In this document: piece by piece, positions 5,093 through 19,974 of the stretch
Numbering within the stretch: position 1 is the first letter of the stretch
Layout: each line of letters starts with the position of its first letter
Source of the DNA: an uncultured virus (IMG/VR IMGVR_UViG_3300000917_000001)
Lineage: Duplodnaviria > Heunggongvirae > Uroviricota > Caudoviricetes
Virus record (IMG/VR): IMGVR_UViG_3300000917_000001
Direction: 5' to 3' (one strand)
DNA length: 20,000 nt
Notes under the pieces: generated by a model
Told to the model about the DNA's origin: nothing
Databases searched by the model: none
The model's input: only the letters and a program-made list of their open reading frames with translations
Position numbers and translations under genes: made by a program

Positions 5093-7060
5093 TTATACTG
5101 TAATTCCTCCACCGCCTAAACCACCACCCATTCCACCCAAACCACCTATTCCACCCATTCCCGTTGTTTGTGCTTTTTCTTCAGGATCTAATGTTTCATC
5201 AATCTTTTGATCTATCTTATACTTTTCTACTTCATTCCAATCAATACTACTTAGATATCTTCGTTTTGCATACTCTCTTGGAATTCCAATTGATTCAAGA
5301 GATTGAATTAATGAAGTAATTTCGCTCATATATCTTGATTCTCTTTCAAATTGTAATGATTTTGGTATTGGAAGAGTAATTAAAACGTTATCAAGAATAG
5401 TCAAAGCTTCTTCTGGATTGATTATATTAAAAATCTTTTGAAATAACTCATTTAGTTGTCTTGTTAAATATTTTTGATGGCCAATTACAGTTCTAGCAAA
5501 TAAGATATTTTCTTCACTTAAAGCTGCTTTATTTGAAAGGTTTTCTTCAATCCCAATAAAGCTTGGCGGAATACCTAAGCTAGATACCAATTGATCTCTA
5601 AGAAACTTTAACTCATCTGTTTTACTTCTTAGATCAACTCTACCTTCATCAAACGTACTAATATCAACAAATGGTTTTCCATCCTTTTGAGGAATATAAA
5701 CATCTTCAAAAGTTGTTATCATACTTGGAATTGTATCGACAGTTCCAAAACTATCAAGACTAATTTTTCTCTTTCTAAACTCTTCTTTCATAGCTTCAAT
5801 AGCTTTTCTTGCATCTCTTGGTAAACCAATTTCAATTGCTACTTTTCGTTTTTCTGTAGATCTTGATAATCTTTGAATTGCAAGTGCTGTCTCTAAAGCT
5901 ACTAATACTTTAGCTGTATATTGTGTACTATCAAAAACTGACTCTCCATATGGATAATATTTAGCAGAAGGAACATGAAAATGAACCATCTTTTCTGGTG
6001 GAACATATCTAATAGCTACAGCTCTATTAAAGTTTGTATTTGATAACATGGATTTAATTATATCTTGCAAATCTCTGTCATTTTTAAATTCTTTCATCTG
6101 AGGTAATTTATTTTCTAAGCTCTTTAATATTGCCATACAAATATTATTAACAGGCTCATCAGCTAATGCTGCTCCAGGAAACAAAAGAACAGCTGGAAAT
6201 ACTAAGAATCCAAAACAAACTGGGAATAAAGCACTTTGAAGTTTAACTACAAATTGTGGATGATGAAAAATCAACTTTGTATTAGAAAGTATTTTATTTC
6301 CTTTTTTTATTGAGCCACCTTTTTCTTTTTTACTTTTTNGTTCTTGGGTTGTCTCACCAACTTCCATAAGAGAAGAATAGTCAACAGTAACACTAAATGG
6401 ATTACCGTCAATATTTTCAGTTATAACATCTCTATATCCTTGCTCTCGTTGATTATCAATAATTACTTCGTATTCTCTTGCTTCTGTTAACAAACTTCTG
6501 CTAGTTAAAACTTCTTTTGGGCCACCAATTTCACAAAATAAATCACCAAATAACAATGTATTCTTAACTAGAACATCTAGTTTATCATCTACAGCTAAAC
6601 TTGATGAAACCTCTTGAACATATCTTGTTTTTGAAGCAGTTGGAGTTTCATCTTCTAAATAAGCTTTTGGTTTAATTTCTAAAGCTGTTTTAGTAATATC
6701 ATCAGGAGACAAAATATTATCAACAAGGACATTTAATGCTCTAAATGCCCAGTTTATTTGCGAAATTATTGCTTGATATGTTCTATATCTAAGCATTCTA
6801 CTACCTTGTCCAAATGCTGCTGGACTAATTCCTTGAGTAAATAAACTACCACCAACTCCAGCTATTTTTACATCTGCTGTTTTTGAAATAAGACTTCTTA
6901 CTAGATCAATATATCCATTTCGTCCAGAATTTGCTCGATATGAAATTATATCTTTAACAGCGCTATCTAAACGTGTATCAATATCACTAGTTTGTGTTTT
7001 TATAATTGTAGATTTTAAACTTTGAAGCGTATCTTTTACACTTTTCAAAGGATCTGCCAT
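5093..7060 (-). CDS. Portal protein, T4 gp20-like
   Basis: RLSRSTEKRKVAIEIG, EDVYIPQKDG, DELKFLRDQLVSSLGIP and EENILFAR correspond to gp20-family blocks; Gly-rich tail; one ambiguous base at 6339. Confidence 0.88.
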   Translation of the reverse strand: MADPLKSVKDTLQSLKSTIIKTQTSDIDTRLDSAVKDIISYRANSGRNGYIDLVRSLISKTADVKIAGVGGSLFTQGISPAAFGQGSRMLRYRTYQAIISQINWAFRALNVLVDNILSPDDITKTALEIKPKAYLEDETPTASKTRYVQEVSSSLAVDDKLDVLVKNTLLFGDLFCEIGGPKEVLTSRSLLTEAREYEVIIDNQREQGYRDVITENIDGNPFSVTVDYSSLMEVGETTQEXKSKKEKGGSIKKGNKILSNTKLIFHHPQFVVKLQSALFPVCFGFLVFPAVLLFPGAALADEPVNNICMAILKSLENKLPQMKEFKNDRDLQDIIKSMLSNTNFNRAVAIRYVPPEKMVHFHVPSAKYYPYGESVFDSTQYTAKVLVALETALAIQRLSRSTEKRKVAIEIGLPRDARKAIEAMKEEFRKRKISLDSFGTVDTIPSMITTFEDVYIPQKDGKPFVDISTFDEGRVDLRSKTDELKFLRDQLVSSLGIPPSFIGIEENLSNKAALSEENILFARTVIGHQKYLTRQLNELFQKIFNIINPEEALTILDNVLITLPIPKSLQFERESRYMSEITSLIQSLESIGIPREYAKRRYLSSIDWNEVEKYKIDQKIDETLDPEEKAQTTGMGGIGGLGGMGGGLGGGGITV

Positions 7061-8377: not shown

Positions 8378-9496
8378 TTAGACCCTAATTCTGCGAGGAT
8401 CTATTTTTTCTACTTTTACTTTGTCTTCTTTTTCTTCTGGTTCTTCTTCATCCTCAACTTCTTCTCTAAAAAGCTTAAAAGCTTCTTCTAGATCCCAATC
8501 TTCTCCTTTTTTATGAGGTGAAGGACCACCTGGAACAGAACTTGGAACTGCTGCTTCTTTCTTAACTTCTTTGTCAACATCTAACTCTTTTTCTTCTGGT
8601 TCTTCAGCTGGTTCTTCTGCAGCTTCTTGCTCAAAGATGCTAGCAATTAGGTCTCTTGCTTCTTTTAGATCTGGCGGTTCAACTACTTTATCATGAATAT
8701 CTTCTCTATCAGGAATCAATGTATCAGCATCGCCAGTTCCTGCTTGTTCTTCACCACCAGGACCTTCTGTATGCTTCATTGATGCACTGTCAAAATCTTT
8801 TGAACCACCTTCTTCTTCCATAGAATCTTCAAAATCACCACCATAGAAGTCGTCACCATCAGATTCCATCTCAGAAATTAGTTTTTCAATGATGGCATTT
8901 TCCATTTCAACATCTTCTTTTACTTCTTCCTTTTTTTCTTCTTTATCTTCAGCCTTTTCTTCTTTTTCTGCTGACTCATCCTGTTCTTTTACTTCTTCTT
9001 TTTCGTCTTCTTTTTCGTCTTCTACTTTTTCTGGTTCTTCATCTTGTTCTGTTAAAACGTCTAGAAGATGTCTTAAAACAGCAGCCTCTCCTACTTCTTC
9101 TTCTTTTTCATCTTCTTTTTCATCTTCTACTTTTTCTTCTTCTTCTTTTACAATATCCTTTTCTTTTTCGTCTTTTGCACCCTCGATAGTTTTTGAGTCA
9201 GCTGTTCCTGCTTGTTCTTCACCACCAGGACCCTCTGTATGTTTCATAGCTGCGCTATCACCAACTTTTCCGGTATCGATCTCATAATCAGCTTCTTCGA
9301 TACCTTGTTCTCTTCCCTCATCAAAGTAGTATCTTTCAAGAATGCTTGCTGCATCCTTGTTAGTTGGTAGTTCACCATCTCCTTTATATGAGAGAATTGG
9401 ATCAAGCATTGGACCTTTTACATCGACCGTTTTGCTTGTATCCCACTCGCTTATAGCTTCTTTCAACATCTTTACATATGACACTTTTTTAGACAT
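8378..9496 (-). CDS. Highly acidic protein, probable prohead scaffold/core protein
   Basis: Very Glu/Asp/Lys-rich, many (L/I/V)-x-E sites, AGGAGG SD, own upstream motif and terminator, near the head genes. Confidence 0.6.
   Translation of the reverse strand: MSKKVSYVKMLKEAISEWDTSKTVDVKGPMLDPILSYKGDGELPTNKDAASILERYYFDEGREQGIEEADYEIDTGKVGDSAAMKHTEGPGGEEQAGTADSKTIEGAKDEKEKDIVKEEEEKVEDEKEDEKEEEVGEAAVLRHLLDVLTEQDEEPEKVEDEKEDEKEEVKEQDESAEKEEKAEDKEEKKEEVKEDVEMENAIIEKLISEMESDGDDFYGGDFEDSMEEEGGSKDFDSASMKHTEGPGGEEQAGTGDADTLIPDREDIHDKVVEPPDLKEARDLIASIFEQEAAEEPAEEPEEKELDVDKEVKKEAAVPSSVPGGPSPHKKGEDWDLEEAFKLFREEVEDEEEPEEKEDKVKVEKIDPRRIRV
8736..9247. repeat. Intragenic 44-bp direct repeat
   Basis: 8736-8779 and 9204-9247 are 42/44 identical; both encode MKHTEGPGGEEQAGT. 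Confidence 0.9.
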
Positions 9497-9590: not shown

Positions 9591-11075
9591 TTATAAAACA
9601 TCAACTCCCTCAAATGATAGAGACGATTTTTGAGTTGCATCTGGTTTCTTTGCATTGGCTCTTGCTTGAATACTAATAAATTTAAATCTAGAGAAATCAA
9701 CTGTAAAACTTAAAGAAACATTATTTTTACCACTTCTATTCTTTCCAATTTTTCCATGAACAACTCCAGCTTCATTTTTATCTGCAGCAAGAAGCATTAC
9801 AAAATCAGCATGTTCAATTTTCTTAATTGATTCACTCATCATATCAACACCAATTTCGTCAGGACTAGTTACTCTATAAGCTCCACGACCTAGTTGAGAT
9901 GCTGTTATAACTGGAATATTATATTGAACAGCTAAAGTTTTTAATGAAAGAGTAATATGACCTAGTTCTAATCTATACATATCATATTTAATATCCGTTT
10001 TAAGCAAATCTAAGTAATCAATATAAAGACCAGCAATTGAATCTTTGCCATATTGTTCAATCATATCATCAACAACACCTGCCAAATCTAAAACACTAAT
10101 ACTCATCGGAGCAAAATATTTCATTACAATTGTTGATCCATTCTTTACTAATTCATCGTATAATCTTTTCTTAATATCAATTCCATGAGTAATATCATCT
10201 AACATCATAGTTGTTGACTTATCAAACATCGGTTGATATGTTCTCATTAAAGCTTCTTCAATAGTATTTTCCAACGTTACATAAATATATACTCTATTTA
10301 TCTCACCTTGTTTTGGCGCTTTCTTATCAAATAAATTTGGAGGTAAAATTGAAGATCTTGATATTACATTATTAATGATTGTAGATTTTCCAGCCCCAGA
10401 CCCACCACCAAAAATATATAATCTTGACGGTTCGAATCCACCATGCATAATTTCGTTATCTAATAAACTAAAACCAGTTGGAGTTGCATTGACCCTTGCA
10501 TACTTTCTTTTAATCATATCAATAACATGACTAAAATCATCTTTAGCAAAATCCAAACTAGCAGATGCTTCAATTGTAATTGCTCGATTGCTTTCCATCA
10601 TATTTGAATAAAGTAATTTAATTGTTTGCTCATAATCTTCAACTAAATCATCAATAGAATCAAAGTTTCCATTCTTTATAATTTCAAGAACTTTATTCAA
10701 TTCATCATAGTTTAAAAATAATGCATTAATCTTTTTTCTTAATCTTACTTGCTTTACAATATCTTGAAATGTTTGATCTTTTAAATCATCATTTACTTTA
10801 AGATCAAGAAAATCTCTATATTGTTTGAATTTTTCGCTGAATGAGATACTATCAAAAATATTATCTATTGTTCTATCATCCAATAACATTGATGTAATCT
10901 TTGTTAAACATTCTACTTTATTTTGTAATCCAATAGGAACCTTTACGGTTTCTTTATCTTTATAAAAACTAAGAATATCAAGAATATCTCTATATAATGC
11001 TTTGCTCTTTTTTATTTTTGATTTCTTATTCAACAATAAAGAAAAACAAGAATTCAAAAACGATTCTGTAATCAT
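9591..11075 (-). CDS. Replicative DNA helicase, DnaB/T4 gp41-like (SF4)
   Basis: Walker A GGSGAGKST, YVTLE, IDYLDLL, TASQLGR, SESIKKIEHAD, KNRSG. Confidence 0.92.
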   Translation of the reverse strand: MITESFLNSCFSLLLNKKSKIKKSKALYRDILDILSFYKDKETVKVPIGLQNKVECLTKITSMLLDDRTIDNIFDSISFSEKFKQYRDFLDLKVNDDLKDQTFQDIVKQVRLRKKINALFLNYDELNKVLEIIKNGNFDSIDDLVEDYEQTIKLLYSNMMESNRAITIEASASLDFAKDDFSHVIDMIKRKYARVNATPTGFSLLDNEIMHGGFEPSRLYIFGGGSGAGKSTIINNVISRSSILPPNLFDKKAPKQGEINRVYIYVTLENTIEEALMRTYQPMFDKSTTMMLDDITHGIDIKKRLYDELVKNGSTIVMKYFAPMSISVLDLAGVVDDMIEQYGKDSIAGLYIDYLDLLKTDIKYDMYRLELGHITLSLKTLAVQYNIPVITASQLGRGAYRVTSPDEIGVDMMSESIKKIEHADFVMLLAADKNEAGVVHGKIGKNRSGKNNVSLSFTVDFSRFKFISIQARANAKKPDATQKSSLSFEGVDVL

Positions 11076-11647: not shown

Positions 11648-11706
11648 AATTCACCATCCTCTAACCAAATGCTTTTTTTAAACCATATATTTAGTCTAAT
11701 ATCCAT
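11509..11706 (-). CDS. Small DnaJ-type CxxCxGxG zinc-finger protein
   Basis: CDNCEGHG...CPKCWGLGKVDWIENIMGK; TAATG coupling to the upstream gene. Confidence 0.7.
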   Translation of the reverse strand: MDIRLNIWFKKSIWLEDGELWCDNCEGHGAFLIEITKTLICPKCWGLGKVDWIENIMGKRTTQEE

Positions 11707-13097
11707 TACATTGTTAGTATACTATGACCATTTTCTAGTTCTTTAAACTCATCTTTTGCCAAGAATTTATCAACTAGATACTGACAATATTCTTCATCTA
11801 AATTCTTTAACATATCCAATGATTTAGAAATACTATATGACTTAGTTTTCTGTTTCTTAGTTATTTTTCCTTGATTTATTATTCGAGTAGCATGTAAGCA
11901 TTCTCTATTAAAATCTTCTGGTTCACCGGTTTTATAAATTGGATACACTCGGTCTGCAAAGTCTTTCATTATTGCTTGAACATCACCATATGTATTCAAA
12001 GTATATAAAATTGAATATGCTTTAATATCTTCAAAGAATGTGTTAGTTTTTGGATCGTATACTCCTTCATCAAATGAGATTGGTTTAAATCCAAATTGTC
12101 CTGCAAAGTCATTTAAAACTTTATTATAAACAGTATCTACAAAAGCATCTTCACCCTTGAATCTTTTATGAAGATTTTTTGTCTTAACATCAAGTTTACT
12201 AATATTTCCATGATTATCTCTTACATGAAGAAATCTGGCATGCATTACTTGCTTATAAATTCCAGAAGAGTCATAAGTGATATTTAAATTTATTTTATGC
12301 TCTTCAAAAACAACTTTTCTAAATAGTTCATAAAATAGAATATCTCTATAATTTGCTCCGCCTAATACGTGAAAATTTAAATGATCTTTATTATATCTTT
12401 TACATTCATTTAATAGTGGGATCAATGGCAGAACATAGATAATACATGGTATTGCCATATCGCCTGACATATTAGCAACAATACCACCGGTTCCATGATA
12501 ATTAAACTCAGGAAATAACTCGTTTTCTCTAAGAATTTTTGTATATATTTCCCACAATTTTGGAGTTCTAAAATGATGAATATAAATTATTTTATCTTTT
12601 ACTGCTTGTGATAAATTCTTTGCTTTTAAATAAGATCGTAAATTCAAATCATAAACATCATTAAAATTTTCAAATACCATGCAACCAGGACCAGGTGGAA
12701 CGTCTAAAATAAAAGCTCTATCAAGAACTTCATGATCTTTTTCTAACCACTCATAATACATTTCAATCAAGAGATCAGATTCTTTTCTTCCAAACTTTCC
12801 TATAGAAATTTGAAATCCTCCACTATCTGCAATAAAAGTACAGTTATCAAATAGTCCGGTTTCTCTACATTTTTTAAACAGATTTGTTTCATTAATACTA
12901 TGTCTTTCCATCTTCTTTCTTCGACCAAAATTTTGACCATAAGAATGAAGATATCCAGAACATGCTACTGAAAGAAACTTTGAAATCTGATCTCTTGTGA
13001 AATTATCATTCCACCTGCCTTTCTTTCCAAGCATATAGTTATCAATAATTGTTGTAAGGGTTTCAAACCCTGCTAAAACATAACCACTTCTAGGCAT
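11706..13097 (-). CDS. TGT-fold guanine transglycosylase-like protein (DpdA-like candidate)
   Basis: Ordered motifs IADSGGFQ, ILDVPP, HVLGG and YDSS correspond to TGT-family active-site segments; QueE is nearby. Confidence 0.65.
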   Translation of the reverse strand: MPRSGYVLAGFETLTTIIDNYMLGKKGRWNDNFTRDQISKFLSVACSGYLHSYGQNFGRRKKMERHSINETNLFKKCRETGLFDNCTFIADSGGFQISIGKFGRKESDLLIEMYYEWLEKDHEVLDRAFILDVPPGPGCMVFENFNDVYDLNLRSYLKAKNLSQAVKDKIIYIHHFRTPKLWEIYTKILRENELFPEFNYHGTGGIVANMSGDMAIPCIIYVLPLIPLLNECKRYNKDHLNFHVLGGANYRDILFYELFRKVVFEEHKINLNITYDSSGIYKQVMHARFLHVRDNHGNISKLDVKTKNLHKRFKGEDAFVDTVYNKVLNDFAGQFGFKPISFDEGVYDPKTNTFFEDIKAYSILYTLNTYGDVQAIMKDFADRVYPIYKTGEPEDFNRECLHATRIINQGKITKKQKTKSYSISKSLDMLKNLDEEYCQYLVDKFLAKDEFKELENGHSILTM

Positions 13098-13109: not shown

Positions 13110-13301
13110 CTAAAATCCAATTCCTTCGCCATCTTTTCCTTTAAATAATTTCATAGAAGTCAAGAACGAAATAATATATGTTCCAACAAATACAAATAGT
13201 AGCGTTATCGGGTCTGTTGAAGATGATAACTTAGCGATAACTATTATAATTAAAACCAAATTTGCCAACCATATCCAATTTCTTTTTAAAAAGTCTTTCA
13301 T
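13110..13301 (-). CDS. Small membrane protein with two predicted TM helices
   Basis: 63 aa, two hydrophobic stretches, ATGA coupling to the upstream gene. Confidence 0.65.
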   Translation of the reverse strand: MKDFLKRNWIWLANLVLIIIVIAKLSSSTDPITLLFVFVGTYIISFLTSMKLFKGKDGEGIGF

Positions 13302-13828
13302 TTATGATTCTCCATTTCAAGGATAGTAAATGGCTCACCTACATGAGCACAGTATTCTTTAGCAGCATTTAACGCCATTAAAACTCGTTTCTTTCCATCT
13401 TTAACTTTCTTAGTTGAAAATAATGAACCAAAAGCATAACCACTTCCTGCACCTATAGAAGAAAAATCTCCTCTTATTTCATTCAACTGAAAGTCTATCA
13501 AAATTTCATAAAGTTTATGATTAAAAATTATTAAGAAATTGGCCTGTGTTGCTTGGGTTTCCTCGTCTGAAGAACTCAAACAACCTTTTTGTTCAAATAA
13601 ATTTCTAAGAGCGTCAGGTAAATCTTCAATATCTTTAGGTGCTTCAAAGAAACGAGATTTTATTACTTGGCCAGATCTAATATTACCAGTATAACCAATA
13701 ATATATGGACCATTTTCTATAATTTTATTTGCAATAACTGGACGTATTTCTCCATCTAATGTAGTTGCTAGTCCATCACACCCCATATATGCTTTTCCAT
13801 TTTGAATCAATCCTACAATGCAAGACAT
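13298..13828 (-). CDS. HslV/proteasome-beta-like Ntn protease
   Basis: N-terminal SCIVG...MGCDG, conserved Lys (NKII), IGYTG, SIGAGSGYAFGSL, ALNAA. Confidence 0.75.
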   Translation of the reverse strand: MSCIVGLIQNGKAYMGCDGLATTLDGEIRPVIANKIIENGPYIIGYTGNIRSGQVIKSRFFEAPKDIEDLPDALRNLFEQKGCLSSSDEETQATQANFLIIFNHKLYEILIDFQLNEIRGDFSSIGAGSGYAFGSLFSTKKVKDGKKRVLMALNAAKEYCAHVGEPFTILEMENHK

Positions 13829-13844: not shown

Positions 13845-14645
13845 TTAAGTAGTTGTGGAACCTGCTCTAATACATTTTGCAATATCAAAACAATGATCGT
13901 ATAAGTGTAATCCTTTACTTGTAGCAATAATATCTCCGTCTTCAACTCCAATACAAGAAACAATGTATTCTTTCAATAATTGAATTCCTCCTAAATTAGC
14001 AGGAAATCCGTTCCACAAATCCCAGCTTCTAAAATAAACAAAAAAGTTTAATTTTCCATCTTGTAGTCTTGTATCAATCTGTCGCAAACAAGGGGGATCT
14101 TTTAACAATATATCAGATGGGTGAGCAACTTGTAAAACCATTTGATTATTTCTTGTTCCTTTATTCTTATATGTCCAAATTAATAATTCAATTTGATTTA
14201 GACAATCGCATTTAAACTCATCATCATAAAAAATGATTCCCAAATCTTCTAGTTCCTTTACTTCGTCTAATAGAATAGCCGACCCCTGATTTGTTTGCAT
14301 TTTCTTCCTAAACTCAACTGGTAATGGATATCTAGTTAATCTTTGACCATATGTATATGACTCACCTTCTGCTATATGACCAGTCATTATATATAGAACA
14401 TAATTATCTAGATAATCACAAGCAACAGGATTTGGAACACCATATTGTTGTGGAATATCTGGAAGTAATGGTCTTGTTCCCGGATACTTTATCTGAATTG
14501 TTACCCAATCATATTCTAATCGTTTTTTCGATTCAAATGAACCTCTGTCAATAATAAATTCTCTTCCTTCATCTAATATTTTATATACTGTTTGAAACCA
14601 AGCATCTGATAAATCTCTCGCTTCAATATGAACACATTTCAGCAT
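13845..14645 (-). CDS. thyA: Thymidylate synthase, archaeal/methanogen-like type
   Basis: YTYGQRL, NQI, PPC (catalytic Cys), FRSWDLWNGFPAN (Asn at the dUMP-specificity position), LHLY. Confidence 0.85.
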   Translation of the reverse strand: MLKCVHIEARDLSDAWFQTVYKILDEGREFIIDRGSFESKKRLEYDWVTIQIKYPGTRPLLPDIPQQYGVPNPVACDYLDNYVLYIMTGHIAEGESYTYGQRLTRYPLPVEFRKKMQTNQGSAILLDEVKELEDLGIIFYDDEFKCDCLNQIELLIWTYKNKGTRNNQMVLQVAHPSDILLKDPPCLRQIDTRLQDGKLNFFVYFRSWDLWNGFPANLGGIQLLKEYIVSCIGVEDGDIIATSKGLHLYDHCFDIAKCIRAGSTTT

Positions 14646-14965
14646 TATTGTCCTCCAACATTGATATTGATTGGTTCTAATCCTTCTTTTTCTTCTTCTG
14701 ATTCTAGAATTCCAAATACTTCTCCATACATTAGAGTTCTCAATATTCTCCTTTCAACAACCATTGACATTCCACCATTTGGATGATATACAATAATGTC
14801 TCCAACTTTTAATCCATTTACAGCATTACCAAATGATATTACTCTACCATATTTTTGTGGTGTTGGTTTTATGGCTGTTTCAGGAATAATAATTCCACCT
14901 TTGGTCTGTCTCTTAATAAGTTCTTCTACTACAACTTTGTCATTAATAGCTTTTATCATTTTCAT
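14645..14965 (-). CDS. groES: Co-chaperonin GroES (Cpn10)
   Basis: IKAINDKVVV, mobile loop TKGGIIIP, GRVISFG, LKVGDIIVY. Confidence 0.92.
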   Translation of the reverse strand: MKMIKAINDKVVVEELIKRQTKGGIIIPETAIKPTPQKYGRVISFGNAVNGLKVGDIIVYHPNGGMSMVVERRILRTLMYGEVFGILESEEEKEGLEPININVGGQ

Positions 14966-15255
14966 TCTCCTTCTTCCATTTCTTTACGTCTTTTTCTAAA
15001 CCTACGATATTCTTTTACCATTTTTTCTTCATCTCTTTTTCTTGCTAAAATTGCTTGTGCTCTTTTCTTTTTCTTTGCAATACACGGTTGTTCATAATAC
15101 ATCTTCTCTCTAAGTTCTTTTATTATTCCACTTTTAGAAAACTTTTTCTTAAATCTTCTAATTAAATCTTCAGTTGATTCTCCTTTCCGTTTTACTACAC
15201 AAACTCCTAAACGTTCTTCACTAAAATTTGGATATGCTACATCTGAATTTCTCAC
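14962..15255 (-). CDS. rpsU: Phage-encoded 30S ribosomal protein bS21 with terminal extensions
   Basis: VVKRKGESTEDLIRRFKKK...GIIKELREKMYYEQP..KKKK matches the bS21 signature; GTG start. Confidence 0.88.
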   Translation of the reverse strand: MRNSDVAYPNFSEERLGVCVVKRKGESTEDLIRRFKKKFSKSGIIKELREKMYYEQPCIAKKKKRAQAILARKRDEEKMVKEYRRFRKRRKEMEEGE

Positions 15256-15274: not shown

Positions 15275-15946
15275 CTAAACAAAACTATACATAATATGCA
15301 ATCTAGAAGAGAAATTAAATTTATATTTCTCTGCTGCATCAAATACTACTGGAGCATTTCTTAGCAAATCAGATCTTGTTACTCCTTCTGGCATAAGAAA
15401 AACTCTCTCACTTTGTGAAATATCATCAACTTCTTTTGATAAAAATTTACAATATCTATTCATATAATCTTCATTTTCATAAACTATTTTTATAAAAAGT
15501 CTTTTAAGAGGTAGAAGTTCTTTAGTCCTTTCAATAGCTTCTTCTGTATCTTTTTGACTGAATATTTTTGGAGAGTAGATAAATTTGACTGGTTTTAATT
15601 CATCAACTGATTTAATCAATTCTTTCAAATGAAATCCGTTTGATTCTACATTTGCAAATGGATAGTTAAGATCATTTAAAATTGAAACTGCTTCATTGAA
15701 GTGTCTATTAACTGTAGGTTCCCCACCAGTTAGTAAAACTCCTGCTTTTGTTTCATTAATAGTTTTTTGAATATCATCTAAATCATAAGGTGCCTCAGCA
15801 GAAATTCTCATTTTTACTGCAGTATCACACCATTTACAACTTAGGTTACAGGTCTTAAAACGAAGAATAAGAGCAGCCCGGCCCATATCTGGACCTTCTC
15901 CTTGAAAACTTCTAAAGTTTTCAATCAATGTTACTTTCTTTCCCAT
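15275..15946 (-). CDS. queE: 7-carboxy-7-deazaguanine synthase QueE-like radical SAM enzyme
   Basis: FRSFQGEG..G, CNLSCKWCDT (CxxxCxxC), TGGEP, VESNG, SPK, LMP, RLH. Confidence 0.85.
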   Translation of the reverse strand: MGKKVTLIENFRSFQGEGPDMGRAALILRFKTCNLSCKWCDTAVKMRISAEAPYDLDDIQKTINETKAGVLLTGGEPTVNRHFNEAVSILNDLNYPFANVESNGFHLKELIKSVDELKPVKFIYSPKIFSQKDTEEAIERTKELLPLKRLFIKIVYENEDYMNRYCKFLSKEVDDISQSERVFLMPEGVTRSDLLRNAPVVFDAAEKYKFNFSSRLHIMYSFV

Positions 15947-15971: not shown

Positions 15972-15979
15972 TTTGTTCT
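15972..15979 (-). promoter_or_regulatory. Putative phage promoter motif AGAACAAA upstream of queE
   Basis: Exact copy overlapping the polymerase stop codon, 26 nt from the queE start. Confidence 0.5.
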
Positions 15980-18900
15980 AAAATAATATTAGTTGCGACT
16001 TTTCTTTGACCTCAAACAAAGGTTTTAACATTAATTCATATCTATCCTTGAACGAAAAGTCTAAAGTTGCTTGGACATCTTTTATAAAATATTCTGGCAG
16101 TTTTTCTTCTTCATCAGGAACTCCAACCACTGCAAGTTTATGTCCCCCTGAAATAAATTTTTGATATTTTTCTGATACTTCCTTTGGAGCTTTATCAATA
16201 TCAATCCCTTTAACCCAGAACATATATGCTTTGGATCCTGGTTTATGAATATCATACATTATTTCATTCCACGCTTCCATAGCTCTAACGCCTTGAGGAA
16301 TTACCTTATAAGATTCTATTTCTTTTCCATAAGTAATTGGGCGTGCTATACTTTTATCACCATTTTGAATTAAATTAATAAATTCTTTTTCTTTAGATTT
16401 TATAAATTCTAATATCTTTGGTAAAGACAATTTTTCACTCTTTAAGATTAATTCAGTTAATTCACTTAAAAACTCTTTTGATTTAGATGGAAAATCTGAT
16501 CTCTTAATTTCAACACCCATATAGTTAATATCATCTGTATCTTTACCTTCTTGATTAATAACTCTAATTGCATATCGTTTCTTTGCTAAAAATAATCCTC
16601 TTGAAATAACTAGCTCATTTTTTAATGCTAATCTATTAAAATCTAAATCAACATTATGTTTTTTAACAATATTAACTACAATATTTTTGTTCAAAAATTC
16701 TTCTACTTTACTACACCATTCTTTTATATTTGCTACAGTTTTTTCTTCTTTAAATTTTTCAAAGCAACAAAATATTGAATCAGTATCCCCAGTAATAATA
16801 TAGTCATTATTTCTATCAGGCATAATATCTGAGAACATTTCTTGTTTCGTCATTTGCTTTGGAGCTTTATATTCTCTATGCTCTTGCATAGATCTCAAGA
16901 AAGCATCACCTTCAATAATACAAGCCTTTAACGCTTCTTGCCCTGACAAAGTTATTGCTCCGGCTAATGAAACATCAAAAAATCTAAATGCTTTATTAGC
17001 AACAACTCCATAAAGCGTGTTTGCCAAAACTTTATAAACCAATTGTCTTGTATAAAAGAATTCTCTTGTTTCTTGATCTTTCTTTTCAATTGCTTCTAAC
17101 ATTTTCTTTTTATAAGTTTTTCTTGATCCCATAATATTCTCAACTACTTGACCAAATACTGAGAAATCTTTTTTATGCTTTTTAAAGAAGCAACCATTTA
17201 TAGTAAATACTAATTCATTATCAGAAATCTTCTTTAATAATTGATCTTTGGTAATAGAAACTTTTTGACTTTCAAATAATGGATCGATAATAACATTTAT
17301 ATTTTCTGGAAGTTTTTCTGGACAATAAGTTAACTCATAACCCAAACTTGAATCTTCTAGTTTCATTACAAAGCTATTTACACCAATATTATAAGTAATC
17401 ATCAAACTTGGATATAGAGATGCAAAATCAAAATCAGTTACATAGCTATAAATTCCTGGAATCGGTTCAAACACAAATGCTCCAGGATACTCTTCTTTGA
17501 CAATATGCGGGTCACTATTTTTTGAAGCTAATCCTTTATTCTTTAAAAATGAAACCATCATTATATCAATTTGACCAAATGATGAAGATCCTGTATCAAA
17601 ACTTGCATTACAAATAGTTCTAATTTCATTTAATAAATTTATATGAGCTAATTTCTTTTCTAACATTTCTAACAATTCGCAATCTCTAATATTATAGTCA
17701 ATTGTTGTATTCAACATTTTCCAATACATTTCATTAAATGGTAAAGGTAATTGAATCTTTGTAACCCCAAGAGTTTTCTGAGCAACAAATCCTAACTTAT
17801 AATTTTCCATTTTTGTAAATGTAAACATCTTGAATAAAAACTCTTGGTCAAGAACAACTGTTCCCGCTAAATGACAAATATAATTTTTTCCATCTGCATA
17901 AAACTCACCAAATTTTGAAAAAGAAATTTGAGGAATTCCAACTCTTTCTAATCTATTGTAAATATAATCAATATCGAAATTGATAAAGTTCCATCCTGAA
18001 AGAAAATCTGGATCTTTTTCTTTGAAGTCCTTTATAAATTCACGAATCAAACTTATCTCGTTTGGAAATATTTTATATATAACTCCAGGTTTCTTATTAA
18101 TTGATTCTGTTTTATTATCAATAACATAAACAATTTTTTCACTATTATAAATTGTTGAAATAATACACATTGGATATTTTGCTTGTTTTGGATCTGGGAA
18201 AACTCTATCTTTTCCTGTATCAATTTCAATATCGCAAAACATTATATTAGATAAAGTTCTTTGGGCTTCACCTTTATTAAAATGATAATAGTCCATCGCA
18301 TGCTTTGCTGTTAACTTTATATCGCCCTCATATGTTTTATCAGGATCAAGATGCGTTTTATCTTTATATTGAACTGCTACTTGTGTTAATTCATCAAATG
18401 GAACAATCTTTCTTGCGTCGATTCCAATAGCTTGATAACAAACATAAGTATCATCTTCTTTATGATAAACTTTTTTATTTTCTTTATCTCTAAAAATATA
18501 TAAAATTTGATTTGTCCTAGAAAGATATTGAATATCAACTAGTCTATAATCTTCTGTATAGAAATGTTCTGGAAGTTTATATCTAAAAATTCCTTTCCCC
18601 ATTTTCTTTATTTTTTCATGTGAACTAAGAGCTATCTTTTTTCCAGTTAATAACTCGACTATTCTTGCCATATCTTCTTCAAATTTATCAGTCCATGTAT
18701 TTTTATTTCTATTTACAAATGATGGATGAACAGTAAGAAATGCTTTATATCCTTCCCATTCAAATACTTGACCATGAAGATTTGTAATACCAGATTTTGC
18801 AATTCCAAAAGCAGACATTGGGCTTGTTCCCATAATTACTATCAATTTTGGATTGCAAGTTTTGATAAGATTCATGGCGTTAATTTTACATAATTCTATA

Positions 18901-19202
18901 ACTTCTGGTTCTGGATTTCCTGTAGTTCCATCAGGATTCAAAGTTTGGCATAATACAATATTTGTTATTAGATACTTAAATTTATCCAAACCAAATTTCT
19001 TAAAGAATAATCTAAACATTTGGCCAGCTACACCAACTAATGGAAGTCCTTGTTTTACTTCATCTTTGCCAGGATTTTCCGCAACAAATACAACTTCAAC
19101 TTTTGTTAGATCGTCTTTAGAATTTGTTTCAAGAATACAGGAAGGTGCATCTAATAATGGACATATAGAGCAGTTTGCAAAAGATTTTTTTATTGACTCC
19201 AA
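15978..19202 (-). CDS. Family B DNA polymerase with N-terminal family-4 uracil-DNA glycosylase-like domain
   Basis: UDG: CxxC, AENPG..E, G.PLVG.AG, ITNIVLC, EVIELC, PKLIVIMG, HPS. Exonuclease: DIE, GWNFINFD, YNIRD. Polymerase: DFASLYPS, K.LANTLYG, GDTDS, KKRY. TTG start with GGAGG SD at 19210-19214. Confidence 0.93.
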   Translation of the reverse strand: MESIKKSFANCSICPLLDAPSCILETNSKDDLTKVEVVFVAENPGKDEVKQGLPLVGVAGQMFRLFFKKFGLDKFKYLITNIVLCQTLNPDGTTGNPEPEVIELCKINAMNLIKTCNPKLIVIMGTSPMSAFGIAKSGITNLHGQVFEWEGYKAFLTVHPSFVNRNKNTWTDKFEEDMARIVELLTGKKIALSSHEKIKKMGKGIFRYKLPEHFYTEDYRLVDIQYLSRTNQILYIFRDKENKKVYHKEDDTYVCYQAIGIDARKIVPFDELTQVAVQYKDKTHLDPDKTYEGDIKLTAKHAMDYYHFNKGEAQRTLSNIMFCDIEIDTGKDRVFPDPKQAKYPMCIISTIYNSEKIVYVIDNKTESINKKPGVIYKIFPNEISLIREFIKDFKEKDPDFLSGWNFINFDIDYIYNRLERVGIPQISFSKFGEFYADGKNYICHLAGTVVLDQEFLFKMFTFTKMENYKLGFVAQKTLGVTKIQLPLPFNEMYWKMLNTTIDYNIRDCELLEMLEKKLAHINLLNEIRTICNASFDTGSSSFGQIDIMMVSFLKNKGLASKNSDPHIVKEEYPGAFVFEPIPGIYSYVTDFDFASLYPSLMITYNIGVNSFVMKLEDSSLGYELTYCPEKLPENINVIIDPLFESQKVSITKDQLLKKISDNELVFTINGCFFKKHKKDFSVFGQVVENIMGSRKTYKKKMLEAIEKKDQETREFFYTRQLVYKVLANTLYGVVANKAFRFFDVSLAGAITLSGQEALKACIIEGDAFLRSMQEHREYKAPKQMTKQEMFSDIMPDRNNDYIITGDTDSIFCCFEKFKEEKTVANIKEWCSKVEEFLNKNIVVNIVKKHNVDLDFNRLALKNELVISRGLFLAKKRYAIRVINQEGKDTDDINYMGVEIKRSDFPSKSKEFLSELTELILKSEKLSLPKILEFIKSKEKEFINLIQNGDKSIARPITYGKEIESYKVIPQGVRAMEAWNEIMYDIHKPGSKAYMFWVKGIDIDKAPKEVSEKYQKFISGGHKLAVVGVPDEEEKLPEYFIKDVQATLDFSFKDRYELMLKPLFEVKEKSQLILF

Positions 19203-19338: not shown

Positions 19339-19974
19339 ATGGTAGATCAACAAGGAGCAGTAGTATTTGAACCCGAAGTGGCCATGGAAATTCCAACCAT
19401 GGATATTTCCGACGCGGCAAAGCTATTGAAGATCAAGGCGAAAGAGGTTTCATCCGACATGGTCTTCGAAGCATTTTACAAGGCCGCAACCGAGAAAGGA
19501 CTTTCAAGCGAGAACAGAAAGAACCTCATCCTCGCAAGAAACGTCTTCGTTCGTCAGTTCACTCTGAGCCAGATAGAAACCCAAGGCTTCTTCGAAGTCA
19601 CATCTGGCTACGAAATTCCATGTGACGTTTGTCACGGGACCGGAGAACTCTATAAGTTCAAGAAGAGTCCTGTGAGCGTCAAGTGTAAAGCTTGCGAGAA
19701 TGGAAGGGTTGTAATTCCTTGCCATTCCTGCAAGGGCACGAAGAAATTCCGGGCTGGCACCAAGGTCGTAGACTGCACCCGGTGTATGGACCCCAAGACC
19801 GGAGAGAGCACCGGAAAGATGACCGTGAAGTGTAAATTCTGTCACGGTACCAGTCGTGTGAAGCGGCCAGTTCTGGAACCCGAACTGCTTGCTGTTACTC
19901 CATGCAAACGGTGTCGTGAAAATGGGTTCCTCTACCCTCGGAAGCAGTTTAACTCTCCGAGAGTATCCGAATAG
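19339..19974 (+). CDS. DnaJ-like Cys-rich zinc-finger protein
   Basis: Six CxxC units (CDVCHGTG, CKAC, CHSCKGT, CTRC, CKFCHGT, CKRC); AAAGGAG SD; visibly higher GC than the rest of the window. Confidence 0.75.
   Translation: MVDQQGAVVFEPEVAMEIPTMDISDAAKLLKIKAKEVSSDMVFEAFYKAATEKGLSSENRKNLILARNVFVRQFTLSQIETQGFFEVTSGYEIPCDVCHGTGELYKFKKSPVSVKCKACENGRVVIPCHSCKGTKKFRAGTKVVDCTRCMDPKTGESTGKMTVKCKFCHGTSRVKRPVLEPELLAVTPCKRCRENGFLYPRKQFNSPRVSE

Follow-up and report, generated by a model that had tools for sequence, protein, structure and literature searches.

Uracil-DNA Glycosylases Coupled to Viral Replicases

Uracil-DNA glycosylase (UDG) domains joined to family A DNA polymerases (UDG-PolA) are well described in SPO1-like, N4-like and PaBG phages (PMC10201439, PMC7412058, PMC3201878). 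In the SP15-like UDG-PolA enzymes (YerA41, phiLo; PDB 9QHS), template deoxyuridine (dU) is excised ahead of the polymerase site and the resulting apurinic/apyrimidinic (AP) site is bypassed with dA (PMC13697223, Missoury et al., NAR 2026); these active forms were characterised both structurally and biochemically in October 2026 (PMC13697223). The same paper describes the mpox E4 UDG as enzymatically active and in contact with the template ahead of the B-family polymerase site and treats B-family polymerases only as partners of UDGs acting in trans (herpesviruses, mpox and African swine fever virus, ASFV). Here we analyse a stretch of DNA of 20,000 nucleotides (nt) from an uncultured virus (IMG/VR record IMGVR_UViG_3300000917_000001), hereafter the window, which contains the gene for the replicative polymerase of an uncultured jumbo myophage whose relatives are found on contigs of ~245-250 kb. 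The encoded protein is a family B DNA polymerase (PolB) of the T4/RB69 gp43 type whose N-terminal part is a family-4 UDG domain (UDG-PolB).

Coupling of a UDG to a replicase is known; its covalent form on a family B polymerase we have not found described before. Literature searches, which took in the main text of openly accessible papers, returned no description of a covalent UDG-PolB. Neither "UDG" nor "glycosylase" occurs in the main text of the PolB classification paper PMC7544198, and T4 endonuclease V is the one glycosylase named in the survey of jumbo phages PMC7824862. The initial annotation of the window, made by a model from the letters, had named the UDG-PolA fusions and the poxvirus UDG as a partner of a PolB, and knew of no characterised covalent UDG4-PolB; the literature agrees with it on these points.

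A Family-4 UDG Domain Fused to a T4-Type DNA Polymerase

The gene and its parts are the following, with lengths in amino acids (aa) and model confidence given as the predicted local distance difference test (pLDDT).

15978..19202, minus strand: UDG-PolB gene, a single open frame of 1074 aa plus stop, with a TTG start codon at 19202-19200
19214-19210, minus strand: Shine-Dalgarno-like GGAGG, separated from the TTG start by a 7-nt spacer (direct reading of the sequence)
18633..19202, minus strand: family-4 UDG-like domain, residues 1-190 (Pfam, PDB alignment, Foldseek); key residues Cys 11/14/85/105, E42-N43 (motif 1), E48, L55, N81 and H159-P-S (motif 2)
18588..18632, minus strand: variable linker, residues 191-205 (low identity, low pLDDT)
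17568..18587, minus strand: PolB N-terminal and 3'-5' exonuclease domains, residues 206-545; Exo I DIE 324-326, Exo II D410, Exo III Y503/D507
15981..17567, minus strand: PolB palm, fingers and thumb, residues 546-1074; Pol motif A D590..SLYPS, motif B K724..N728..YG, motif C DTDS 806-809

The uninterrupted 1074-aa open reading frame (ORF) is confirmed as a single open frame of the minus strand, and Pfam, PDB and Foldseek matches for both of its parts bear out the claim of the initial annotation that a family-4 UDG is fused in frame to a complete PolB. Pfam places the UDG family (PF03167) at residues 34-179 (E-value 1.3e-17), the PolB exonuclease (PF03104) at 316-470 and PolB (PF00136) at 553-950, and PHROGs assign residues 232-985 to "DNA polymerase" (phrog_262, E 1.5e-121). 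The AlphaFold2 (AF2) model of the full-length protein has a mean pLDDT of 89.8 and a predicted template modelling score (pTM) of 0.73; the pLDDT is 64 at residues 191-200, within the linker, a variable stretch of 15-20 aa.

The best phmmer matches of the polymerase part among PDB entries are T4 and RB69 gp43 (E ~1e-36), and the two proteins are also at the top of the Foldseek search with the full-length model (E 7.6e-45, template modelling score, TM, by target 0.70-0.78). The residues D324/E326, D410, Y503/D507, D590/D592/S595/Y597, K724/N728/G732 and D806-T-D-S809 are invariant in a 48-sequence alignment; the Exo I-III and Pol A-C motifs, which had been read as intact, are indeed complete, and they stand in a gp43-type fold. 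The protein ends in a hydrophobic C-terminus (...QLILF). A beta-clamp QLxLF motif (here QLILF) was considered as a feature of the family and rejected, as just 2/121 tails read so.

As to the N-terminal part, residues 1-215 match solved structures of free-standing family-4 UDGs in phmmer (1L9G/1VK2, E 1e-18; 1UI0, 3e-18; 4ZBX, 3e-16), to which the domain is 25-30% identical, and the N-terminal UDG of the phiLo family A polymerase (9QHS) with an E-value of 1e-9. In the Foldseek search with an AF2 model of residues 1-200 (pLDDT 77.7), ranks 1-5 are all family-4 UDGs (TM 0.64-0.70, E ~1e-13), followed by UdgX, phiLo (E 1.6e-9), SMUG1, UNG, TDG and MUG. Searches with hidden Markov models (HMM) and with structures therefore agree on a UDG fold of family 4 for this region, as the initial annotation had proposed.

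In principle such an architecture could arise from a chimeric assembly, from an overlooked stop or frameshift, or from the calling of two genes as one, an explanation to which we assign practically no probability and which is effectively refuted. The frame is uninterrupted and the exact stretch is present in 7 soil and wetland metagenome runs, no RNA run being among those listed; the UDG/PolB junction (~18588-18647), singled out early as the point to check, is bridged by Logan contigs of 4/4 runs examined with 0 differences and 0 indels, the sole caution being that the runs with the exact DNA may include the source sample. Moreover, both domains lie in a single protein in 120/120 listed homologs (JGI, ENA, NCBI, Logan), and 9/9 IMG/VR loci in which the 5' end is present encode the fused protein. 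The UDG-PolB fusion is thus confirmed as real and robust.

Distribution of the Fused Architecture

UDG-PolB is widespread in environmental jumbo phages. The homolog search gave 746 matches, of which the 120 listed are 62-92% identical to the query, ~1075 aa long and endowed with PF03167 and both PolB families in every case, and the protein is also encoded, with an identity of 56-67%, at the nine IMG/VR loci. When 1.84 billion representatives of 50%-identity clusters were searched, there were 17,078 matches at E<=1e-3 and 971 at E<=1e-30. Among the best 150 representatives, 77 match an HMM built from the UDG domain of the fused family, with identities down to ~28%, and Pfam confirmed UDG plus PolB in 10/10 of such HMM-positive representatives checked. 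Besides the plain form of ~1080 aa, the variants comprise a split form made of a ~830-aa UDG-exo-palm protein (e.g., P0156) and a ~300-aa thumb protein (e.g., P0222), intein-bearing forms (P0081, P0126, P0204) and long proteins (1200-1400 aa) in which another 150-200 aa precede the UDG (e.g., P0150, P0170, P0179, P0188, P0215), an extra segment for which neither a Pfam family nor an ESM Atlas match was found. In addition, P0192, P0195, P0207, P0210, P0213 and P0216 are PolBs of ~650 aa that start exactly at the PolB N-terminal domain and are nested among fused split-type relatives; in these cases the UDG may be a separate gene, or the gene calls may be truncated.

A FastTree phylogeny of the PolB core comprised 105 rows, after removal of every representative that covered <85% of residues 206-815. 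In it the fused forms occur in most clades and cluster strongly (0/500 shuffles gave a value as low). As support at the deep nodes is weak, and many of the "unfused" rows probably stem from gene calls truncated at the 5' end, we claim neither a single origin nor a number of losses.

The picture is different in GenBank, where tblastn with the query and with the distant fused proteins P0188 and P0157 found no fused form in 50,697 phage records: each query hit ~2,660-2,680 PolB-bearing records over the PolB part only, none with at least 80% query coverage. The UDG domain alone matched 25 of these records. Eleven are annotated as DNA polymerase (SPO1-like Bacillus/Lysinibacillus phages, phiLo, and MW202455.1, a UDG-PolA by Pfam), one is of DnaE type (archaeal virus), one is a free UDG, one is hypothetical and 11 are unannotated, two of which on inspection were free-standing ORFs of 216 and 280 aa. 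The DnaE-type case is Methanobacterium virus PhiF1 (H61, MK994522.1 59989-60378), where the UDG-like match falls under a gene annotated as a DnaE-superfamily polymerase, and which may represent a third polymerase family with a UDG. The initial annotation had asked whether the architecture is already common and characterised: common it is in metagenomes, it has no representative among the 50,697 GenBank phage records searched, and no characterisation was found.

Conservation of the Uracil-Binding Pocket

The pocket of the family-4 enzyme (UDGa) of Thermus thermophilus consists of E41, G42, E47, F54, N80 and H155 (Xia et al., 2017, PMC5387724). The leaving uracilate is stabilised by H155, whose replacement by Ser carries a penalty of ~3-4 orders of magnitude; N80 recognises uracil at N3/O4; E47 keeps out thymine and 5-substituted uracil; and N89 in motif 3 positions the water (PMC5387724). 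In the same enzyme, F54A costs ~17-fold and G42D alone lowers k2/Km ~89-fold (PMC5387724). Through the alignment to 1UI0, the six pocket residues correspond to E42, N43, E48, L55, N81 and H159 of the query, and Cys11, Cys14, Cys85 and Cys105 align with the iron-sulfur (Fe-S) cysteines of 1UI0/1L9G, which in family 4 are the ligands of a [4Fe-4S] cluster. The UDG-superfamily fold, the four Cys and the equivalents of N80, E47 and H155 that mark family 4 are therefore all in place, and every motif listed in the initial annotation (four Cys, AENPG..E, ITN, HPS, GLPLVG, diverged loop) is found in the alignment to 1UI0/1L9G.

Three positions depart from the reference enzymes. Canonical motif 1, GE(G/A)PG with its E-G/A doublet, reads AENPG in the query, the Glu being kept and Gly/Ala replaced by Asn, and this N43 occupies the position of the UNG catalytic Asp (alignment and PMC5387724). 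The stacking aromatic (F54 of T. thermophilus) is Leu55, with GLPLVG where the references read GRPFVG. Finally, CQTLNPDGTTGNP stands where the references read CRPP.NR.P (motif 3), a loop 4 residues longer than in canonical UDGa, so that the counterpart of the motif-3 N89 (CRPPxNRxP) may be either N89 or N96 of the query, the alignment being ambiguous at the longer loop.

We followed these residues in two sets of sequences. In the subfamily set (the query and the 120 listed of the 746 matches, 121 rows), E42, N43, E48, P54-L55, P160 and S161 are present in 121/121 rows, N81 and H159 in 120/121, and the motif-3 loop is conserved as D91-G-T-T-G-N-P97. C85 and C105 occur in 121/121 rows, C11 in 116/121 and C14 in 117/121, the rest being N-terminal gaps and never substitutions. 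The distant set comprises 64 near-complete UDG domains, namely the query and, once 14 partial matches had been set aside, 63 of the 77 cluster representatives with a UDG. Here the four Cys are found in 64/64, the motif-1 Glu in 60/64, Asn81 in 63/64 and His159 in 62/64; position 55 is Leu in 54/64 and Phe in 10/64, and position 43 is Ala in 39/64 and Asn in 20/64. The mean pairwise identity of the UDG domain (0.687) is on a par with that of the PolB domains (0.667-0.692), as compared with 0.377 for the linker (residues 186-205). The four Cys and the uracil-pocket residues are therefore conserved as tightly as the polymerase core. Furthermore, in two ~245-kb relatives PF03167 has one match per relative, inside the PolB ORF, so that neither of these two large relatives has a recognisable UDG other than the one on its polymerase.

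Near-invariant uracil-reading residues and slow evolution are the pattern expected of an active uracil-reading pocket, and the conserved E48, whose counterpart E47 blocks 5-substituted uracil in UDGa, argues for uracil as the base that is read. We think it somewhat probable, from these residues and from the analogy with the enzymes described above, that the UDG domain is an active, uracil-selective glycosylase working at the replication fork.

Genomic Context

The genes recognised around UDG-PolB are listed below; fractions refer to the nine IMG/VR relatives, and the gene neighbourhood was compared within their 56-67% identity subfamily.

15275..15946, minus strand: QueE-like radical-SAM gene (PHROG 2076, E 5e-31), 31 nt downstream of the co-oriented polymerase gene
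14962-15255, minus strand: ribosomal protein bS21 homolog (Pfam PF01165, E 2.9e-11), 8/9
14645-14965, minus strand: GroES-like co-chaperonin, 9/9
13845..14645, minus strand: divergent thymidylate synthase (TS)-family gene, 266 aa (Pfam PF00303, E 1e-9), 9/9
13298-13828, minus strand: HslV-like Ntn peptidase (PHROG 1040, E 2.9e-15)
11706..13097, minus strand: TGT/DpdA-like candidate, 463 aa (ESM Atlas lead only), 8/9
9591..11075, minus strand: DnaB-like replicative helicase (Pfam, PHROG), in the block of the relatives
5093-7060, minus strand: portal-like gene, with an ambiguous base (N) in the window and an X in the translation
1424-2875: gp23-type capsid protein

The order UDG-PolB, QueE, (S21), GroES, TS-like, HslV-like, TGT/DpdA-like candidate, DnaB is conserved in the nine relatives, and the QueE-like gene directly follows UDG-PolB in 9/9. 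The TS-like gene finds its best PDB match in a TS (E 1.6e-9); the catalytic Cys and the Asn of dUMP type both align, PPCL stands where TS has PCH, and the product could be a TS or a dUMP hydroxymethylase. For the 463-aa ORF, searches of Pfam, PHROGs and PDB sequences gave no match; by its ESM Atlas features it scores 0.94 against a viral cluster with PF01702 in 15% of its members and 0.90 against a DpdA cluster, and its TM to Tgt is 0.56/0.66. The HslV-like peptidase and the GroES-like gene sit between replication genes. Among the phage genes in the window are also a prohead protease and the portal.

Two further ORFs attracted our attention. The protein encoded at 8378-9496 (minus strand, 372 aa) is extremely acidic (Glu/Asp/Lys-rich), has the motif MKHTEGPGGEEQAGT internally duplicated and matches no family. 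At 19339-19974 (plus strand), divergent from the polymerase, lies a gene for a 211-aa protein rich in CXXC zinc-finger repeats, with homologs at the same place in 7/9 relatives; this region has 43% G+C, against ~30% in the rest of the window.

A broader view is offered by a 248-kb relative (G001) with a 65% identical polymerase, which is ~79% complete and in which 222 ORFs of at least 130 aa were scanned with PHROGs. It also carries Dda, UvsX, topoisomerase II, gp46/47-like SbcCD, ribonucleotide reductase and RNase H, as well as QueC, QueD, dCMP deaminase, a glycosyltransferase and a nucleoside 2-deoxyribosyltransferase-like protein. A ligase-like match is weak (E 3e-6), and a denV-like glycosylase/AP lyase is present. 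This relative has two phiKZ-like sets of multisubunit RNA polymerase (RNAP) beta/beta' genes (L020:11783-18880, L022:14018-19680), and it pairs T4-type capsid, sheath, baseplate and PolB with phiKZ-like RNAP, thereby mixing the hallmarks of groups 1 and 2 in the scheme of PMC7824862. QueE, QueC and QueD, together with the TGT/DpdA-like candidate, point to a putative 7-deazaguanine DNA modification in the lineage. The divergent TS-family gene with its dUMP-type Asn, and the dCMP deaminase and glycosyltransferase of the 248-kb relative, are indirect hints of a possibly thymidine-modified genome. A genome containing dU was considered as well but seems unlikely, since the replicase carries a conserved uracil pocket.

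Role of the UDG Domain

Among the roles suggested in the initial annotation, a replication-coupled base scanner is best supported, by residue conservation and by the analogy with the UDG-PolA enzymes characterised in 2026; within it, we infer the glycosylase activity, the uracil specificity, the Fe-S cluster and the strand inspected. The UDG domain would travel with the polymerase and inspect DNA at the fork, its likeliest target being template that is still single-stranded, immediately ahead of the polymerase site. Tethered to the N-terminal domain of PolB by a short flexible linker, it would meet a template uracil before the latter is copied, a read-ahead like the one demonstrated for SP15-like PolA and suggested for mpox E4-F8 (PMC13697223). 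The dU generated by dUTP misincorporation or cytosine deamination would then be flipped out and excised. The options after excision would be A-rule bypass, stalling followed by recombination-dependent restart, for which UvsX, Dda and gp46/47 of the 248-kb relative would be relevant, or processing of the AP site by phage or host enzymes.

Several observations weigh against this mechanism. Three changes in or near the pocket are fixed in the subfamily (Phe to Leu, Gly/Ala to Asn, and the motif-3 loop). Leu55 need not disable the enzyme, if the modest ~17-fold effect of F54A in T. thermophilus UDGa is a guide; as to N43, G42D is harmful (~89-fold) in that background, and in the motif-3 loop with its 4 additional residues the water-positioning Asn (N89) cannot be placed with the present alignment. 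In P0124, P0143 and P0214 the motif-2 His and other pocket residues are lost, the domain and all four Cys being kept. Moreover, 14 core-region rows have an N-terminal extension of 120-400 aa that does not match the UDG HMM; 0/14 of these extensions reach the Pfam UDG cut-off, with one weak sub-threshold match. PolX, which in SP15-like phages finishes the repair, was not recognised among the scanned ORFs (at least 130 aa) of the ~79% complete 248-kb relative. Because lineages have lost the His and pocket, or the UDG match, and yet keep the domain or the extension, catalysis would seem dispensable at least sometimes, and the UDG domain probably also has a non-catalytic value.

The domain could even be mainly non-catalytic, acting in DNA binding, in processivity, as an aid to strand displacement, or as a uracil sensor that stalls the polymerase and leaves the base uncut, in function akin to the pocket with which archaeal PolBs read ahead. 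We rate this as possible but doubtful. It would accommodate the change of the stacking Phe to Leu, the altered motif-1 and motif-3 regions, the lineages that lack His or Glu and retain the domain with 4/4 Cys, and the 14 extensions devoid of a UDG match; in addition, a processivity role has been proposed for the UDG-like domains of SPO1 and T5 (PMC3201878) and for the inactive N4-like UDG-PolA (PMC10201439). However, E42, E48, N81 and H159, which serve the hydrogen bonds to uracil and the leaving group, would be unneeded for generic DNA binding, and they are near-invariant. The outcome of the clamp searches also speaks for a non-catalytic role: in two relatives, PF02916 gave only weak sub-threshold matches within RNAP-like ORFs and PF09116 gave none, PHROGs at 1e-5 recognised no sliding clamp in the 248-kb relative, and the clamp-loader neighbours in the relative had no Pfam match at E<=1. 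On the other hand, a gp44-like clamp loader (E 2e-57) in the 248-kb relative implies that a clamp exists and has diverged beyond recognition. RB69 gp43 binds its clamp via its C-terminal tail, and a short hydrophobic tail, ...[VIL]L[TS][FIM], is conserved in the fused family and common to unfused relatives, which would be consistent with clamp binding. Tail and loader together argue that processivity is still provided by a clamp. The built-in processivity module of the initial annotation is therefore weakened by the loader and by the constraint on the pocket, and favoured by the lineages that lose catalytic residues yet keep the domain.

Distinctly less probable, in our judgement, is an active glycosylase of shifted specificity, which would police unmodified or wrongly modified bases in a 7-deazaguanine-containing, possibly T-modified, genome. 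The broader-specificity families MUG and SMUG1 carry GINPG/GMNPG motifs, whose Asn is resembled by N43 at the position of the UNG catalytic Asp, and the E-N doublet is found in 121/121 subfamily rows versus E-A in 39/64 distant fused domains. Leu for Phe, the remodelled and conserved motif-3 loop, the block with QueE, a TS-family enzyme and the TGT/DpdA-like candidate in 8-9/9 relatives, and QueC, QueD, dCMP deaminase and glycosyltransferase in the 248-kb relative would all fit such a retuned pocket, which, if real, would add a third, chemical proofreading activity to a family B replicase. However, E48 is invariant, N81 and H159 are uracil-reading residues, and guanine or 7-deazaguanine would be unlikely to fit a family-4 pocket. 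Furthermore, distant fused relatives have canonical motifs, so that the fusion did not arise for the proofreading of modifications. The altered specificity raised in the initial annotation is thus possible, but the invariant thymine-excluding Glu argues for uracil, and an active, uracil-selective glycosylase is the reading that we prefer.

Comparison With Known Systems

That uracil removal can be coupled to the replicase is established for family A polymerases of phages and, with the UDG in trans, for the family B polymerases of poxviruses; in a large and deep environmental jumbo-phage radiation, the UDG is tied covalently to a T4-type PolB. Current catalogues may under-represent a common replicase design, the fused forms being missing from the 50,697 GenBank phage records searched and from the PolB classification paper PMC7544198. 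The clade could serve as a single-chain model, amenable to bacterial expression, for the handling of template uracil by a B-family replisome, in which the fate of the abasic site that UDG-PolB would leave behind is a testable question, and its natural active and decayed variants could separate catalytic from structural roles.

The polymerase part shares with T4/RB69 gp43 all Exo and Pol motifs and the gp43 fold, and the 248-kb relative has a T4-like set of partners (DnaB/gp41-like, gp44-like loader, UvsX, Dda, gp46/47-like, topoisomerase II). It differs in its low identity (only ~20-26%), in the 205 extra N-terminal residues and in motif B, which reads KxxxNTLYG. Likewise, the UDG domain has in common with the free-standing UDGa of T. 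thermophilus (1UI0), Thermotoga maritima (1L9G) and Sulfolobus tokodaii (4ZBX) the fold, the four Cys, the motif-1 Glu, the thymine-excluding Glu, the uracil-binding Asn and the motif-2 His-Pro-Ser, whereas Phe is replaced by Leu and Gly/Ala by Asn, the motif-3 loop is longer by 4 residues and the domain is fused to a polymerase.

Like UDG-PolB, poxvirus D4/E4 with E9/F8 physically joins a UDG to the family B replicase of a virus, the poxvirus pair being bridged by A20/A22. The poxvirus, herpesvirus and ASFV UDGs are separate proteins acting in trans, whereas the link described here is covalent and its UDG of the family-4 type; the UDGs acting in trans belong to family 1 and are not known to carry an Fe-S cluster. 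Archaeal PolBs have, in the N-terminal domain and next to the incoming template, a read-ahead pocket, which binds template uracil and stalls the polymerase without excision. They are thus also family B replicases equipped for the detection of template uracil, by means of the same N-terminal domain to which the UDG is fused in UDG-PolB, but the archaeal pocket is part of the polymerase fold and does not excise, whereas UDG-PolB has a separate glycosylase domain appended. Uracil read-ahead by archaeal PolB is mentioned as an introductory statement in PMC7544198.

The closest parallel is with the SP15-like UDG-PolA of YerA41, phiLo and SP-15. In both, the UDG domain is N-terminal to a replicative, exonuclease-proficient phage polymerase, the catalytic Glu and His are kept, as in the active SP15-like forms, and a TS-family gene and other nucleotide-modification genes lie nearby; UDG-PolA fusions, too, occur in active and decayed versions across lineages. 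The SP15-like polymerase, however, is of family A, with inserts 1 and 2 and a C-terminal extension, whereas that of the query is of family B (T4/RB69 type) and lacks the SP15-type inserts, and the query has four Fe-S cysteines and the E-N/Leu variant motifs. The query UDG domain scores ~70 bits to free-standing UDGa and 41 bits to phiLo, which suggests that the fusion in UDG-PolB may be independent of that in UDG-PolA, the Fe-S family-4 UDG appearing to have been acquired independently.

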